This document shows, in pieces, positions 5,203-64,000 of a stretch of 64,000 bases of DNA. Made by a program: the position numbers and the translations under genes. Every line of letters begins with the position of its first letter. Within the stretch, counting starts at the first letter, position 1. The stretch lies in the IMG/VR virus record IMGVR_UViG_2706796725_000001, positions 1 to 64,000 of that record; one strand, written 5' to 3'. The DNA comes from a virus. Taxonomy: Duplodnaviria; Caudoviricetes. Below the pieces are notes generated by a model. It did not search any database and had not been told where the DNA came from. It saw only the letters and a program-made list of their open reading frames with translations.

Positions 5203-5982
5203 AAATCACAATAGAAATACCACCAGAGGAAGTATCAAGCATCCTCTCTTTCAATACAGAGTTTGCCGCAGTTATCACAAAAGCTGTAACAGAGCAATGT
5301 GTGAAGCAGAGCATGGAGATTAATCAGGGAATTATGGGAGAAATGTTCCCTTGGTTGAAAGGAGGTAAGGTATGATTAATAAAAACAAATGGCAACTTAC
5401 AGAAGAAGAGAATAGTGCATTCATTTGCCAACTAAACTCTAAAGGTTCTAATCGTTGGTTTTGTGGTGTTCAAGCTGGTTGGGAAGATGATGGATTAAGA
5501 ATTTCTGAAGGAGAACTTCACAAGATTGCCTTGAAAATGGCTGCTGCGGAAGAACTCTATAATGCGATTGCAGACCTTCTACATGATGAGAGTGAAGACT
5601 GTATTCCTACAAGTTTTTGGAGAAATGCTTATGATGCCTACATAAAGGCAGGGGGTGGAGGGTGACATACAAAACAACACCGAAGCATGAGAACCTAATT
5701 CTCCACATGATTAAGCCTGACAAGTATGATGAGGAAGAATATCACGACCACCGTTTCTTTGAAGATTTGATGCAACACTACTTCCTGTATGCTGATTGGA
5801 AAGGATGCTGGCACAAAGATGATAAGAAATACCAGAAGAAAATGCTGAAGAGTTTGTTCTTCGTAATTGAGGGCTTACTGAAGGGTGATGATTTGGCTGT
5901 CATGCAACGGTTTCATGTTATCGTGATGAAACATGGGTATGACGGGTTGAATAAGTTCTTGGATGGAGAAGATGCTTACTAG
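5199..5982 (+). CDS. Three small overlapping hypothetical ORFs (5199-5375, 5372-5665, 5662-5982)
   Basis: Coupled start/stop overlaps with GGAG(G) RBSs. Confidence 0.6.
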
Positions 5983-5985
5983 AAA

Positions 5986-6010
5986 AAGCCCCTTAATTGG
6001 GGCTTTTCTT
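5986..6010 (+). terminator. Intrinsic terminator
   Basis: AAGCCCC-TTAATT-GGGGCTT followed by TTCTTT. Confidence 0.8.
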
Positions 6011-13928: not shown

Positions 13929-14004
13929 ACTGATGACAAAATAATTTGGAGAGGGTCTTGTTGAATAGTGGGTGGGGGGGGTGATATTAGTGGGGGGGTA
14001 TGTG

Positions 14005-14118
14005 TAAAATTGAGTTTCAGGGATTGGAGCAAAATTGTATGGGAAGATATTGTTAAGAACGCCGACTAATATTTTATCGTAAAATTCAGTTTTAGGAATT
14101 GGGGCAAAATTGTATGGG
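14005..14118. repeat. Imperfect 39-bp direct repeat, 75-bp period
   Basis: TAAAATTGAGTTTCAGGGATTGGAGCAAAATTGTATGGG (14005) vs TAAAATTCAGTTTTAGGAATTGGGGCAAAATTGTATGGG (14080). Confidence 0.8.
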
Positions 14119-14457
14119 CGGTCCCACCCCCACTCATCACCCTCCCATGGGGGATTGCCCGGCCCCTTCATGTATACCCCTGAGGCTTCCTATTTGCCCG
14201 TATAAGCGACGATATGACCTAACCAATACCATTGCCTAACCTATCCCTGACACGCCGTACAGGAGATTATACAGCCTCCTAGCCTTATACAAGAATGTAG
14301 CAGATAATACCTGGCAGTATAACCAAACAGAATATAATCCCCTATACTTCACTGGGGATTATCAGTCAATAATGTGTACAAGGATATTCGAATATACGTA
14401 TAGGCTAATATATGCAGGCAAAATAAAGCCCCTTAATTGGGGCTTATGTTATGTCTG

Positions 14458-14679
14458 CTAACCTTTGGCGTAACGTATCAGGCTTTTAAAATACGCTTGC
14501 TTGTCTTTATGTCCTTGCATATTTCCTCTCCATGCCACCACCTTTGTACCACTCTTCTTAATACCACACCAACGGCCTTTGTCAGCGGGGTTCCCAGCAT
14601 ACACCCACTGGCCCGGCTGTATCTTGCACATTAACTCCTCTGGAAATTCCCAGATGTTAAACGCTTTGCAATATTTCAT
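14458..14679 (-). CDS. Early hypothetical protein
   Basis: Own promoter TTGCAT-17-TAGACT (minus strand, 14743-14715) and downstream hairpin 14426-45. Confidence 0.65.
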   Translation of the reverse strand: MKYCKAFNIWEFPEELMCKIQPGQWVYAGNPADKGRWCGIKKSGTKVVAWRGNMQGHKDKQAYFKSLIRYAKG

Positions 14680-15026
14680 AAGTCACCTATTAAGTTTTGA
14701 TTGATTATGGGTTAAGTCTATCAGATAAAACAGGGAGATGCAAACAGGAAATCATTACAACAATTCATCAATCATTAGAACAATTCATCATAGTAGATTG
14801 TAAATAACCATATATTAGGTTATATAGCCCTATTTAAAGTAATTATTAAAAGTCAAGTGGTCAGGAAGGCCTAGAAATGGCCTTGTAAGGTATTTTAGAT
14901 TCACCCTATACAATCATAACACCCTATATGCTAAAACCTCGTCAGCAAGAAAAGGCTATTTTTGGCACGAATCCTGCAAATAATAAAGCCCCAATTAAGG
15001 GGCTTAGATTGTGTTAGGTGTGTTGG

Positions 15027-15110
15027 TTAAATTGGTTGTAGCATAATCAGGATGAACACAGTTAGAGCTATGATAAGCTGAATCCAGTCTGTCATAGAAT
15101 ACTTTGGCAT
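15027..15110 (-). CDS. 27-aa hydrophobic micro-protein MPKYSMTDWIQLIIALTVFILIMLQPI
   Basis: GAGG RBS, single TM-like stretch, followed by terminator 14986-15005. Confidence 0.55.
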   Translation of the reverse strand: MPKYSMTDWIQLIIALTVFILIMLQPI

Positions 15111-15122
15111 AATGTTCGGCCT

Positions 15123-15179
15123 CTATTTAACCGCATAAATGATTGCAATGATTGTTATTACTATCTCGGGAATAGTCAC
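15123..15179 (-). CDS. 18-aa hydrophobic peptide MTIPEIVITIIAIIYAVK (copy 1, GTG start)
   Basis: AAGGGG RBS; paralog at 15406-15462 differs by synonymous changes. Confidence 0.7.
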   Translation of the reverse strand: MTIPEIVITIIAIIYAVK

Positions 15180-15188
15180 AGTCGCCCC

Positions 15189-15380
15189 TTATGCATTAAT
15201 GTCAATTACATAATACCGAGTAGTCCAAGCAACAAAACTTTGAACTACCATCACCCGACAACCTAATACTAGATTGCTGTAATATTCTTTCCTGCAATGC
15301 TCTAGTTCATCCACCTGATCACAGGCCGTGTCAACAGGGATTAAATGGCGGAATGTTTCTTTTGTTATTTCTGAGTACAT
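15189..15380 (-). CDS. Early hypothetical protein
   Basis: 63-aa ORF lying between the two peptide copies. Confidence 0.6.
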   Translation of the reverse strand: MYSEITKETFRHLIPVDTACDQVDELEHCRKEYYSNLVLGCRVMVVQSFVAWTTRYYVIDINA

Positions 15381-15405
15381 GATTAAAGCCCTTTATATTT
15401 TTAGA

Positions 15406-15462
15406 TTATTTAACCGCGTATATGATTGCAATGATTGTCACAATTATTTCGGGAATAGTCAT
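15406..15462 (-). CDS. 18-aa hydrophobic peptide MTIPEIIVTIIAIIYAVK (copy 2)
   Basis: AAGGGG RBS, ATG start, TAA stop. Confidence 0.7.
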   Translation of the reverse strand: MTIPEIIVTIIAIIYAVK

Positions 15463-15471
15463 GTTATCCCC

Positions 15472-17105
15472 TTATACATATAGATTGTTTGGAATTAATA
15501 ACCCCTCGATTATCTCTTGATTAATCATCTGTATATAATAATCCAGATACTCAAAATAGGAATCAACATAAATCTTATATACGTTAGCAGATACACGCCT
15601 AACGTCACCAGAAAACCGAGGTTTACAGTCTGTGTTGTGAATAGAAAATTCTAACCACATTGTACGTTTATTGCTGTGCAATGACAGATCAATATGAATA
15701 GAGTCAGCGCCCTCAACATGATACGTCATGTAAGGGTTAACACCACGCTCAAGCATGTTGTCCCATTGCCCCTGAATTTTTTCTTTAATTTCTTTTTTGA
15801 GATTCATTTTAAAACCCTTTATATTTCGAATTAATTTTATACAACGTTAATGTAACGCTGATAATCAATGCCAGCATACAAGCAAGCCAGATTAATACAG
15901 GCATTAGAACACCTGATACACAATACTTTCACCGTCACCAGTGACACCAATAACAGTCGTATTATCCTGCAAGTATTCCTGCACCTGCTCTGGTATATCC
16001 TCTTCAGGATCAACGTCGATGCTATAATTGTCGATAATTTCCTGCAATGTATCTTCGGAGTAATCGCAGCAGATGGAAATAATATCAACTTCAAATTGTT
16101 CACCCGTACCCTGTTCCATCTCTTCAAAGTGATCGAACAACAAATCCCGTGCTTCATGGCTAAAGGTTGTTTGAGCGGTTATATTGATCGAACAGGTTAG
16201 AGAACTCATAACGGTCAAGTGTATATTTCATTTTAATTTTCCCTTTAAGTTTTGACTATTTACTTTATACATTAGTTTCTTTTAGTAAACAAGGTGGTTC
16301 ACCCCATTTTTCCAGCTCTTTTGATAAATTCTCCTCTTCAACTATGCATAGACATACACTTCTGATATAACCTCGTCGTAGGAATTGATCAGGTTATATT
16401 CACATACTAAGTATATTTTCATTTTAATACACCCTATCAATTAACCACAAAATAAATAACAAAAGGGTTATACAGGATACTGGCAATAATACAGCCGCCC
16501 ATAATATCCTGTTTTAATACATTGAGCATATTATGCCTCTCCTTCCATCACTAAATAATAGTACCAGTCATCAAACTGGCGCTGAGTCATGCCAGCACAA
16601 TACACCGATTTAAGCTGTCGCTTAGTAATTGCAACAGGATAGCGATTATATTTATGGTTAAACGTATTGCAAAACTCATCTCTTGCTTTACGGCTGTTGA
16701 AGCAATAAGCATCACCCCACATATTATAACGGCCTGTTAACAGGTGCGGATTGCCTGTTGTGGCGTTGCTGCCGACCCAGGCCAGATAGTTGCGTTTAGC
16801 TTTCATTCTACTTCATCCTTTACAATAGTTAATGATTCAACCACAAAACCTTCTTTATAATATTTCCACCATACAAAATGCTCAATGATGTATTGCAATA
16901 AAACATTATCAGTGAAGCTTTCAGCAGAAACATACTCTTCAGGTTCTTGCAACTTCAAAGTGTTCATTTCATCTTGCTGGAAAATATCGTCAATGATGTG
17001 GATGTTAAACCATTCTCTGTCCTTAACAACAACACACTGAAAGTTTCTCCCGTCAAGTTTTGTTGAATAGTGAGCTACAACTGTTTTGTTGAATTTGCGT
17101 TTCAT
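15472..17105 (-). CDS. Early-region ORFs (15472-15807, 15809-15904 hydrophobic, 15904-16218, 16437-16529 hydrophobic, 16531-16806, 16803-17105)
   Basis: Co-oriented with coupled starts and stops; promoter TTGTAA-16-TATAAT on the minus strand at 17172-17145. Confidence 0.6.
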
Positions 17106-19649: not shown

Positions 19650-21133
19650 TTAATCTCCCCAATATATGTTCATATCTATAATCTTGCTAGGCATCTGTAA
19701 TACATCAATGGCACGTGTAGTTGCTACATAGAACAGATTAACCTCTTGTGGAGGCATATCTTCCCATGTAATTGACTCAGGAATTGCGAAGTCATCTGCT
19801 AGGATCACTTGGCTCCATTCCCTACCCTTACTCTTGTGTGCTGTAGTTAATAAAATATCTACACCGGTTGGGCTGTTAGATAAGTTTTCAAGACTGTCTA
19901 CGAAATCCTTAACACTACCATCCATCACTATCTTAAGCAACACGTTTCAATTCACCGCCTTCCTTAGCTTCCTCCATCAGTTCTGCCCAACTGCTGTAGA
20001 GTGCTATGTCTTCATCCTTAACCTTCTTCAAATCCCCTTTATACAGGAAATATGCACTCCATAGCATATTGATGAATTTCTTAATATCCACTTCACAATA
20101 CACACTCCTACCTTGCTGAACATAATCCACTGCATCATAGAACAGAGTAGAGTTGAGTCTGTATATCTTAGTGAAAGGTTTGCTTTGATCTATTTCCCCC
20201 ACCTTACTATCAATATGTTCAGACCCTTTTACATCAATCGCACCACTAATAATCCATTTAGCTGCTGCTGCTATCTTCTCACCATACCTGAAACTCTTGG
20301 TTAAAGTTTTACTGGGTGCAGTAATAATCTCCATAGCATTCACAGCACCTCTGAATTGGTAGATGGATTGGTATTGATCCCCTACATAGATTATCTTGCA
20401 AGATTGCCTTTGAATAATATCCAGTACACAAGGGTTTGTATCTTGTGCTTCATCTACATAAATAATATCGTAATTCAGTTTAGGCTGAGAGAGCTGCCAT
20501 AGTTTCAATACACCATCAAAACCCACTAGAACGTCTGTGTGAGGGTTTATCTTGTCAGCCCACATCTTAATAGCTGTTTTGTGAATGAGGCTCACAAAGG
20601 CTTTCTTGTCAATCTCAGGGTGTGTTTTCCCCTATGGCTACAATCTCTTGATATGGCACATGCTTCTGGGATAACTCCATATCTGCTGAATTCTCAAAAC
20701 GTGTTATTGTACGCTTAACCAAGCTGGCAATAGCATTAGGGGTGATTAGGTCATCATACCCTGCTGGGAAAGGTTTGATCTTATAATAGATTGCAATCTC
20801 ACTGGCTGTACCTGCACAATTCTTATACTTACCTTTAGGTCTAACACACTTTCGAGTGATGCTGTAATCTATGGAAGAGAATGCCATGGAGTGAGATGTT
20901 CTACAGTCTACATGATCAGGAAATTTAGACTTAGCTTCATCTGCGATAGCCTTGTTAAAGCATAGATATAAACTACTTTGTGGATTAGCATCTGCTAGTA
21001 CTTTCAATGTACTACTCTTACCTGACCCTGCAACAGCATTAACCTTCATTACCCTTGTGTTTGTGAATGTTTCCAGTATGTCAAGCTGTTCTTGTGTTGG
21101 ATTAAATTTCATTATCTTGTCCTCGTTTCTCAT
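19650..21133 (-). CDS. UvrD/Rep-like SF1 helicase (one gene, split by two apparent frameshifts near 20630 and 19946)
   Basis: 'AVAGSGKS', 'YVDEAQD', 'VGDQYQSIYQFRGA', 'SFRYG', 'TAHKSKGREW', 'YVATTRA' spread over three consecutive ORFs. Confidence 0.85.
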
Positions 21134-63597: not shown

Positions 63598-64000
63598 CTA
63601 CTTCATGTTCTTGTGACGGTAGAAGCCTTGTAATCTGCTTTTCCATTTCATCCCCTTATAATTCTCAATAGAACAACCTGCTTTATCATCCATGTGAATA
63701 AACTGGTTGTCTGCTAAAACAATTCCTACGTGTATCGGATGACCTGCTATTGTAAATAAGGCTATGTCACCTTTTCTTGGATCATCTACTTCAATAAAAT
63801 CTGTATCTTTATCTTTCTCTAATTCAAATTGTGTTGAACATTCTTTATAACTGTTTTTTGTAGTTATTCCTGTAAAGGGTGGTAAGGTTATGTTGAATTT
63901 ATCCTCATAAATCTTTCTAACCAATCCCCAACAATCTAAGCCACCATCTTTCCTAACATCCCTTCCACCTGTTTTCCAAGGGATTCCTATATAACCAATT
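63598..64000 (-). CDS. NlpC/P60 tail-tip assembly protein (lambda gpK-like), 5' end outside the window
   Basis: 'YIGIPWKTGGRD..GLDCWGLVR...GDIALF..HPIHVGIVL..QFIH'. Confidence 0.85.
   Translation of the reverse strand, partial: IGYIGIPWKTGGRDVRKDGGLDCWGLVRKIYEDKFNITLPPFTGITTKNSYKECSTQFELEKDKDTDFIEVDDPRKGDIALFTIAGHPIHVGIVLADNQFIHMDDKAGCSIENYKGMKWKSRLQGFYRHKNMK

Follow-up and report, generated by a model that had tools for sequence, protein, structure and literature searches.

Hydrophobic micro-proteins encoded in phage accessory operons and cassette slots form an already recognized class. In bacteria, the small membrane-protein regulators KdpF, AcrZ, MgrB, MgtS and PmrR (reviewed in PMC12648545) and the 27-aa YohP (bioRxiv 10.1101/2025.05.06.652344) consist of one short apolar helix with few polar end residues; such proteins comprise 27–49 residues, possess a full TM helix and have known partners or effects. 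The toxin IbsC has 19 residues, almost all of which lie in the TM helix (PMC12648545), and the Ibs peptides of E. coli are 18–19 residues long, nearly entirely hydrophobic, multi-copy and missed by gene callers. Among phage products, PhiNM1 Gp11 is an early small membrane protein that binds the host proteins MurG and DivIC, as determined by experiment (PMC11237401). Cassette (‘moron’) slots of phage accessory regions are sites where unrelated small ORFs replace one another at a fixed position flanked by conserved genes.

Two 18-codon phage genes, pep1 and pep2, share with the bacterial regulators the predicted short apolar helix with few polar end residues, the lack of catalytic potential and a likely action by contacts inside the membrane, whereas their products are phage-encoded and shorter, with an apolar core of ~12 out of 18 residues. 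The Ibs peptides are matched in size, hydrophobicity, multiplicity and absence from gene calls; however, neither sequence likeness nor a Sib-like antisense RNA or promoter was detected, and pep1 and pep2 are coupled phage cistrons rather than stand-alone genes. With PhiNM1 Gp11 the genes have in common a neighborhood of small genes, a probable early or accessory operon and a hydrophobic product expected to act on the host membrane; the partners of Gp11, by contrast, were demonstrated experimentally. As in known cassette slots, each relative has zero or one cassette at the slot described here, but the conserved right-hand border is an 18-codon gene, which in the genome under study is duplicated around the cassette. 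Pfam, NCBIfam and PHROG contain no model of the pep1/pep2 family, which has been traced so far in two lineages.

The window, i.e., the whole stretch of DNA analyzed, is the first 64 kb of a single phage contig of 82,438 bp. The genome encodes a terminase, ribonucleotide reductase, family-B DNA polymerase, primase-helicase, ligase and tail genes, and the nearest records, 45–49% identical in DNA polymerase, are Pakpunavirus-like, Acinetobacter BS46-like and Curvibacter P26059A-like myoviruses. Up to ~14 kb the genes lie on the plus strand, and past that point on the minus strand. The convergent junction of the two gene blocks carries two 40-nt direct repeats (14004-14118), 75 nt apart and 90% identical. 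Close by, a 73-aa ORF at 14458-14679 (minus strand) forms its own short transcription unit; it matches phrog_21585 (E = 1e-41) and shows 44–51% aa identity with proteins of Pakpunavirus-like, Pseudomonas, Cronobacter, Salmonella and Escherichia phages. A UvrD/SF1-like helicase at 19650-21133 (minus strand) apparently spans three consecutive ORFs of 172, 220 and 91 aa, recognized as Pfam and PHROG fragments, and could represent an intron, an intein or a genuinely split gene. The hairpin AAGCCCCTTAATTGGGGCTT or its loop-inverted form, with the core CCAATTAAGGGGCTT, occurs at least seven times genome-wide (Table 1), and this recurrent element looks like a bidirectional intrinsic terminator.

Both micro-ORFs lie in an operon with the cistron order 100 aa, 91 aa, 30 aa, 104 aa, 31 aa (TM), 111 aa, pep2, 63 aa, pep1, 27 aa (TM) and terminator, where they occupy what would otherwise be puzzling gaps between coupled small cistrons. 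When SD-preceded hydrophobic micro-ORFs outside long genes were collected, those with an ATG or GTG start clustered in this 1.5-kb operon stretch. The distance from the upstream stop to the micro-ORF start is 9 nt in both cases, and the next start follows after 25 and 12 nt. The SD sequence AAGGGG also precedes several undoubted genes of the phage at a spacing of 5–8 nt, e.g., the gene at 63657 for a 1418-aa product; it makes up 5/114 ribosome-binding sites in a crude gene set, and AGGGG another five. Each micro-ORF has its own SD, which overlaps or adjoins the stop codon of the preceding ORF, and this arrangement shows it as a predicted separate cistron, translationally coupled to that stop. 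A PADLOC search returned no match.

Table 1. Coordinates of the pep1/pep2 locus, its operon neighbors, the recurrent hairpin and the orthologues in related contigs
Feature	Sequence	Position	Strand	Remarks
pep1	window	15179..15123	minus	18 codons, GTG start, TAG stop; paralogue of pep2
pep2	window	15462..15406	minus	18 codons, ATG start, TAA stop
Shine-Dalgarno AAGGGG of pep1	window	15190..15185	minus	5 nt before GTG; overlaps TAA stop of 63-aa ORF
Shine-Dalgarno AAGGGG of pep2	window	15473..15468	minus	5 nt before ATG; overlaps TAA stop of 111-aa ORF
73-nt repeat, copy 1	window	15124..15196		end of upstream ORF, SD and pep1
73-nt repeat, copy 2	window	15407..15479		end of upstream ORF, SD and pep2
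104-aa, 30-aa and 91-aa ORFs	window	15904..16806	minus	upstream syntenic operon genes
30-aa ORF	window	16437-16529	minus	
31-aa single-TM micro-ORF	window	15809..15904	minus	upstream of 111-aa ORF
111-aa ORF	window	15472..15807	minus	upstream of pep2; anchor for orthologue search
63-aa ORF	window	15189..15380	minus	between 73-nt repeat copies
27-aa hydrophobic micro-ORF	window	15027..15110	minus	last cistron; GAGG SD overlaps pep1 stop
Intrinsic terminator hairpin (predicted)	window	14986..15005	minus	operon end
Hairpin AAGCCCCTTAATTGGGGCTT	window	5972-6010, 14412-14450, 14982-15014, ~29986		
Hairpin AAGCCCCTTAATTGGGGCTT	genome (G000)	~64922, 77352, 82318		
Orthologue	L045	2864-2920		
Orthologue	L055	2254-2310		
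Orthologue	L056	2437-2493		
Orthologue	L057	678-734		
Orthologue	L058	751-807		

The first-pass annotation had described two hydrophobic micro-ORFs with AAGGGG ribosome-binding sites; both were confirmed with exactly the translations it gave, and every difference it listed (synonymous changes, GTG/ATG start, TAG/TAA stop and a VI/IV swap) is present. The 73-nt repeat that contains them is the longest direct repeat of the 64-kb window. Its copies are 82% identical, the similarity ends at the stop codon, and the flanks agree at random level (9/42 positions upstream, 19/60 downstream). Nine differences separate the two ORFs over 57 nt, namely the start (G/A), the stop (G/A), five third and two first codon positions, with none at second positions; the third-position changes in codons 5, 14 and 15 are synonymous, and the V-I/I-V swap accounts for four nucleotide changes in codons 7–8. 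The SD-to-start spacer, by comparison, diverged at 4/5 positions (versus 9/57 in the ORF; Fisher p = 0.006). For this pair pS is 0.36 and pN 0.07. When nine random substitutions with the observed transition/transversion mix were simulated, start, stop and frame were kept with two or fewer residue changes in 0.2–0.3% of trials, and with only the seven internal substitutions the observed BLOSUM score was equaled or exceeded in 0.03%. A degenerate back-translation pattern matches exactly two sites, pep1 and pep2 (0.00 expected from shuffles), and no third copy turned up when the complete 82-kb genome was scanned in six frames at high sensitivity.

The 111-aa ORF, used as query in an exhaustive HMMER search, led to the relatives. 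Its best match, a protein of 122 aa with 46% identity by HMMER on contig L045, and four other members of its 90% cluster are located on contigs L045 and L055–L058, all from ENA assembly ERZ27266020. An 18-codon ATG..TAA ORF of the pep1/pep2 family is found near the operon 3′ end in all five contigs. Homologues of the 91-aa, 30-aa, 104-aa, 31-aa and 111-aa ORFs occur there in the same order; tblastn aa identities to L045 and L056 are 57% for the 91-aa, 48–54% for the 30-aa and 60% for the 104-aa ORF, while the 31-aa TM ORF is 56–62% identical in L045, L055, L056 and L057, and the 111-aa ORF 43–44% identical to its five closest homologues. Conservation of the 31-aa and 30-aa ORFs in these contigs makes both likely to be real unannotated micro-genes. 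Of the two window copies, pep2 is the closer to the metagenomic orthologues (11–13 of 18 residues identical). SD-like purine tracts precede all seven copies despite unrelated upstream flanks. Downstream of the micro-ORF the relatives carry either a 28-aa hydrophobic ORF (L045, L056 and L057), the positional counterpart of the 27-aa ORF to which homology was not demonstrable by sequence comparison, or a terminator; predicted terminators lie downstream of the micro-ORF region in L045, L055 and L058. Past the operon terminator, a stretch of ~450 nt with no called gene is conserved at 83–85% nt identity (L045:3064-3509, L055:2347-2714, L058:848-1292) and may have a regulatory role or encode a small RNA.

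Since a single metagenome assembly supplied every orthologue, the family is documented in two lineages. In the phage collection, neither the region nor the peptide had a close relative by megablast and tblastn. Pattern scans of viral, metagenome and genome contigs returned nothing or chance N-termini of longer proteins (e.g., SecG-like); the first degenerate patterns demanded apolar codons at positions 8 and 10, where the orthologues have Ala or Ser. No micro-ORF copy was detected in three records at ~46% DNA-polymerase identity or near the more distant 111-aa homologues (L046–L054), and the loci reached through a PAPS-reductase-like gene had only that gene in common with the window.

Variation among the seven copies follows the codon structure, with 8/17, 2/17 and 16/17 variable sites at codon positions 1, 2 and 3, respectively (chi-square p = 9e-6; position 3 versus position 2, p = 2e-6). 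All seven retain the 18-codon length, the start and the stop; residues M1, T2, P4, E5, I6, A12, Y15, A16 and K18 are invariant, and the remaining positions exchange only I/L/V/F/A/T/S. Comparison of the window copies with the metagenomic ones gives a pS of 0.73–1.05, i.e., saturation, and a pN of 0.13–0.26; in the comparison of pep2 with the L058 copy, 12 of ~12 synonymous versus 5 of ~39 non-synonymous sites have changed (p = 4e-8). Cross-lineage identity of the peptide is 61–72%, compared with 43–62% for the operon’s proteins and 43–44% for the 111/122-aa neighbor, while 33–40 of the 57 nucleotides are identical. The sense frame is the sole one open with start and stop in all seven copies. 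RNAalifold predicted no base pairs on the micro-ORF alignment, single-sequence folds were no better than shuffles (z-scores near 0), and Rfam, including Sib, gave no match at E up to 1. Considering the orthologues, the saturated synonymous sites, the kept residues, the single open frame and the lack of an RNA fold, the micro-ORF is very probably a protein-coding gene, as far as sequence can establish, and in both phage lineages the substitution pattern shows purifying selection on the predicted protein sequence. The earlier claim of real peptide genes under purifying selection is therefore supported by five syntenic orthologues, synonymous saturation and residue conservation. Loss of frame in homologues, which had been named as an observation that would speak against it, was looked for, and frame, length, start and stop are kept in all five.

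These data bear on several readings in which the peptide itself has no role or a different one. In the first, the 73-nt unit matters as DNA or RNA, be it as protein-binding site, structured RNA or recombination linker, with the ORF as a mere by-product. Such a unit would suit the bracketing of the cassette, the homology island between differing flanks and the 8-nt palindrome within the repeat; nevertheless, variation with 3-nt periodicity (8/2/16), the absence of conserved pairing and of Rfam matches with folds at shuffle level, and a peptide that is still kept at 33–40/57 identical nucleotides leave this reading hardly credible. Plus-strand antisense ORFs at 15139-15213 and 15422-15520 were also considered and rejected: they are without an SD, differ at 5/18 residues and lack the start codon in the relatives.

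Alternatively, translation of the micro-ORF could act only in cis, handing on ribosomes or shielding the mRNA end, with the peptide irrelevant. The tight stop/start spacing (9 nt; 25 and 12 nt) and the overlap between the SD of the 27-aa ORF and the pep1 stop are what such a coupling ORF would predict. Yet residues are kept while synonymous sites are saturated, and in L055 and L058 just a terminator, with no cistron, follows; both points argue against a purely cis-acting ORF, which we regard as very unlikely. An attenuator leader of the ilvL/thrL type was rejected on separate grounds: the next starts are 25 and 12 nt away with no hairpins, the terminator ends the operon in L055 and L058 with no gene after it, and the conserved residues include P4, E5, Y15 and K18, not just Ile, Val and Thr.

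In a further reading, ribosomes read through the TAA stop of the preceding gene, so that its protein acquires the micro-ORF product as a hydrophobic C-terminal extension. Both window copies do begin 9 nt past that stop and in its frame, but the in-frame stop is part of the 73-nt repeat, so the two cases are not independent. The frame relation is lost in the relatives: the L045 copy starts 5 nt past the upstream stop and out of frame, and the L055 start overlaps the upstream stop as TAATG. In addition, the start codon stays a start (GTG/ATG), the SD is kept and no suppressor tRNA was found in the genome. Given the non-conserved frame relation and the missing suppressor, read-through is rejected, with a probability close to nil.

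The likeness to Ibs and type I toxins suggested by the first-pass annotation did not hold up in the same way. On this account the product would be a membrane-depolarizing peptide restrained by an antisense RNA, as in the IbsC/SibC pair, and its length of 18 codons, its GRAVY of 1.4–1.9 and the presence of several copies per genome, which is typical of Ibs, agree with it; toxic depolarizing activity without an antitoxin RNA is also conceivable for a lytic phage. However, a consensus scan, which an atypical promoter would escape, revealed no opposite-strand promoter-like site reading through either window copy or those of L055 and L058, and no antisense promoter or terminator was seen beside the micro-ORFs in the window or the relatives. 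The flank from which an antisense promoter would act differs per copy, being the 63-aa ORF, the 27/28-aa ORF, a 51-aa ORF or a terminator. The micro-ORFs are coupled operon cistrons that have neither their own promoter nor a long structured 5′ UTR masking the SD, folds being at shuffle level. No family match was obtained in Pfam, NCBIfam or PHROG at E up to 10 (in Pfam and NCBIfam with 21-residue in-frame references spanning each peptide; the HMMER filters and short length limit sensitivity), nor in Rfam at E up to 1. An Ibs-like toxin is therefore an unlikely, though not far-fetched, identity for pep1 and pep2.

The seven peptides follow the family pattern M-T-[IL]-P-E-I-[IV]-x-x-x-[IL]-A-[FI]-[IL]-Y-A-[IV]-K, and core residues 6–17 have an average hydropathy of 2.5–3.1. 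The apolar run comprises residues 6–17 (12 residues), or 3–17 with P4 and E5 inside; it is as short as in Ibs and below a typical TM segment, a bilayer-spanning apolar helix being taken as about 18–20 residues. A chain of 18 residues is never out of the ribosomal tunnel before release, so any membrane entry would be post-translational. Other very small membrane proteins also enter the membrane post-translationally (PMC12648545). We hypothesize that the peptide, once released, enters the host inner membrane and folds there into a single short helix with a T-x-P-E N-cap, ~12 apolar residues and a C-terminal Lys. It could then act by helix–helix contacts through the A12-x3-A16 small-residue face, a motif reading based on the invariant A12 and A16, and the partner, a host membrane protein or the co-encoded 27–31-aa membrane peptides, would be modulated early in infection. 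The best explanation of pep1 and pep2, and the one we moderately favor, is that of a genuine conserved gene whose product is a small membrane helix modulating host membrane function; for the membrane-helix mechanism itself, given that the gene is real, the balance is even. The most plausible functional reading, we infer, is that of a membrane-protein-regulating micropeptide.

The 111-aa protein was analyzed as the neighbor of pep2. A word-based protein search returned only the ORF itself, while the exhaustive HMMER search identified 76 remote homologues, which belong to an unnamed phage and mobile-element family of ~100–120 aa; no usable entry for the neighboring proteins was obtained from the ESM Atlas, and no relationship was found between the 111-aa and 63-aa proteins. 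AlphaFold2 modeling from a 58-sequence alignment produced an alpha-beta5-alpha fold with pLDDT 95. Foldseek returned no match to this model at E <= 0.001; with VIA-align, at least 12 of the 25 best matches were T3SS class I chaperones or YbjN-like proteins at Z 4.7–6.2, values below 8 being the range of common arrangements. The modeled protein thus weakly resembles the T3SS class I chaperone/YbjN fold. Distant relatives of the 111-aa protein adjoin ArdA (L052) and a T7 gp0.6-like gene (L054), a neighborhood that fits an early, host-directed operon. Together with sigma-70-like sites upstream at 17.1–18.0 kb, whose number is no higher than in shuffles, these neighbors make an early-region placement of the operon plausible.

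The fold raises the idea that the 111-aa protein acts as a chaperone that binds one or both of its hydrophobic neighbors, the 18-residue and the 31-aa peptide, and keeps them bound until they are delivered. The confident model, its chaperone/YbjN-like best matches and the position of the 111-aa gene between hydrophobic micro-ORFs in both the window and L045 are in line with this idea. Against it stand the Z scores in the common range and the empty Foldseek search, the distant family members without an adjoining micro-ORF, and the cassettes that separate the two genes in four of the five relatives. We consider a chaperone–client relationship improbable.

The slot directly upstream of the micro-ORF is empty in L045, where the micro-ORF comes straight after the 122-aa gene, and holds unrelated ORFs of 61, 160, 70 or 73 aa in L055–L058. 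In contigs that are 86–90% identical elsewhere, the micro-ORF is a homology island between swapped flanks. This comparison shows the site to be a predicted cassette slot. The window joins both layouts in the order 111-aa ORF, pep2, 63-aa cassette and pep1, with the cassette bracketed by the 73-nt repeat. A word-based protein search, tblastn against the relative contigs and the ESM Atlas found no homologue of the 63-aa ORF, which is read as an inserted cassette. Considering the slot and the repeat-bracketed cassette, the duplication is best read as a by-product of cassette recombination; in the simplest reading, recombination between variants each bearing the micro-ORF left one copy on either side of the cassette. 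Of the two, pep2 has the family residue I7, and pep1 the derived order V7-I8. The initiation regions of the 63-aa (15383-15411) and 111-aa (15809-15837) ORFs carry a common 29-nt motif with 79% identity and the core AAATATAAAGGGYTTTAA, which suggests that cassettes may move together with a common initiation region.

A bolder combination of these elements, in which an 18-residue effector, held by the chaperone-like 111-aa protein and handed over to the host inner membrane, blocks a specific host membrane machine and its gene doubles as a recombination border, is a speculative outside chance. If it were true, the border role would explain both the unusual conservation and the duplication of the micro-gene, and the 18-residue peptide would be one of the smallest dedicated phage effectors, perhaps acting with the 27–31-aa peptides.

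To our knowledge, genes of 18 codons fall below the cutoff of every gene caller, and we know of very few proteins of 18 residues with evidence of selection. Here, such a micro-gene has been kept in two phage lineages whose neighboring proteins are only 43–60% identical, one genome bears two copies of it, and it serves as the border of a cassette-exchange slot. The pep1/pep2 pair accordingly offers a concrete and cheap target for learning what the smallest phage proteins may do to the host envelope.
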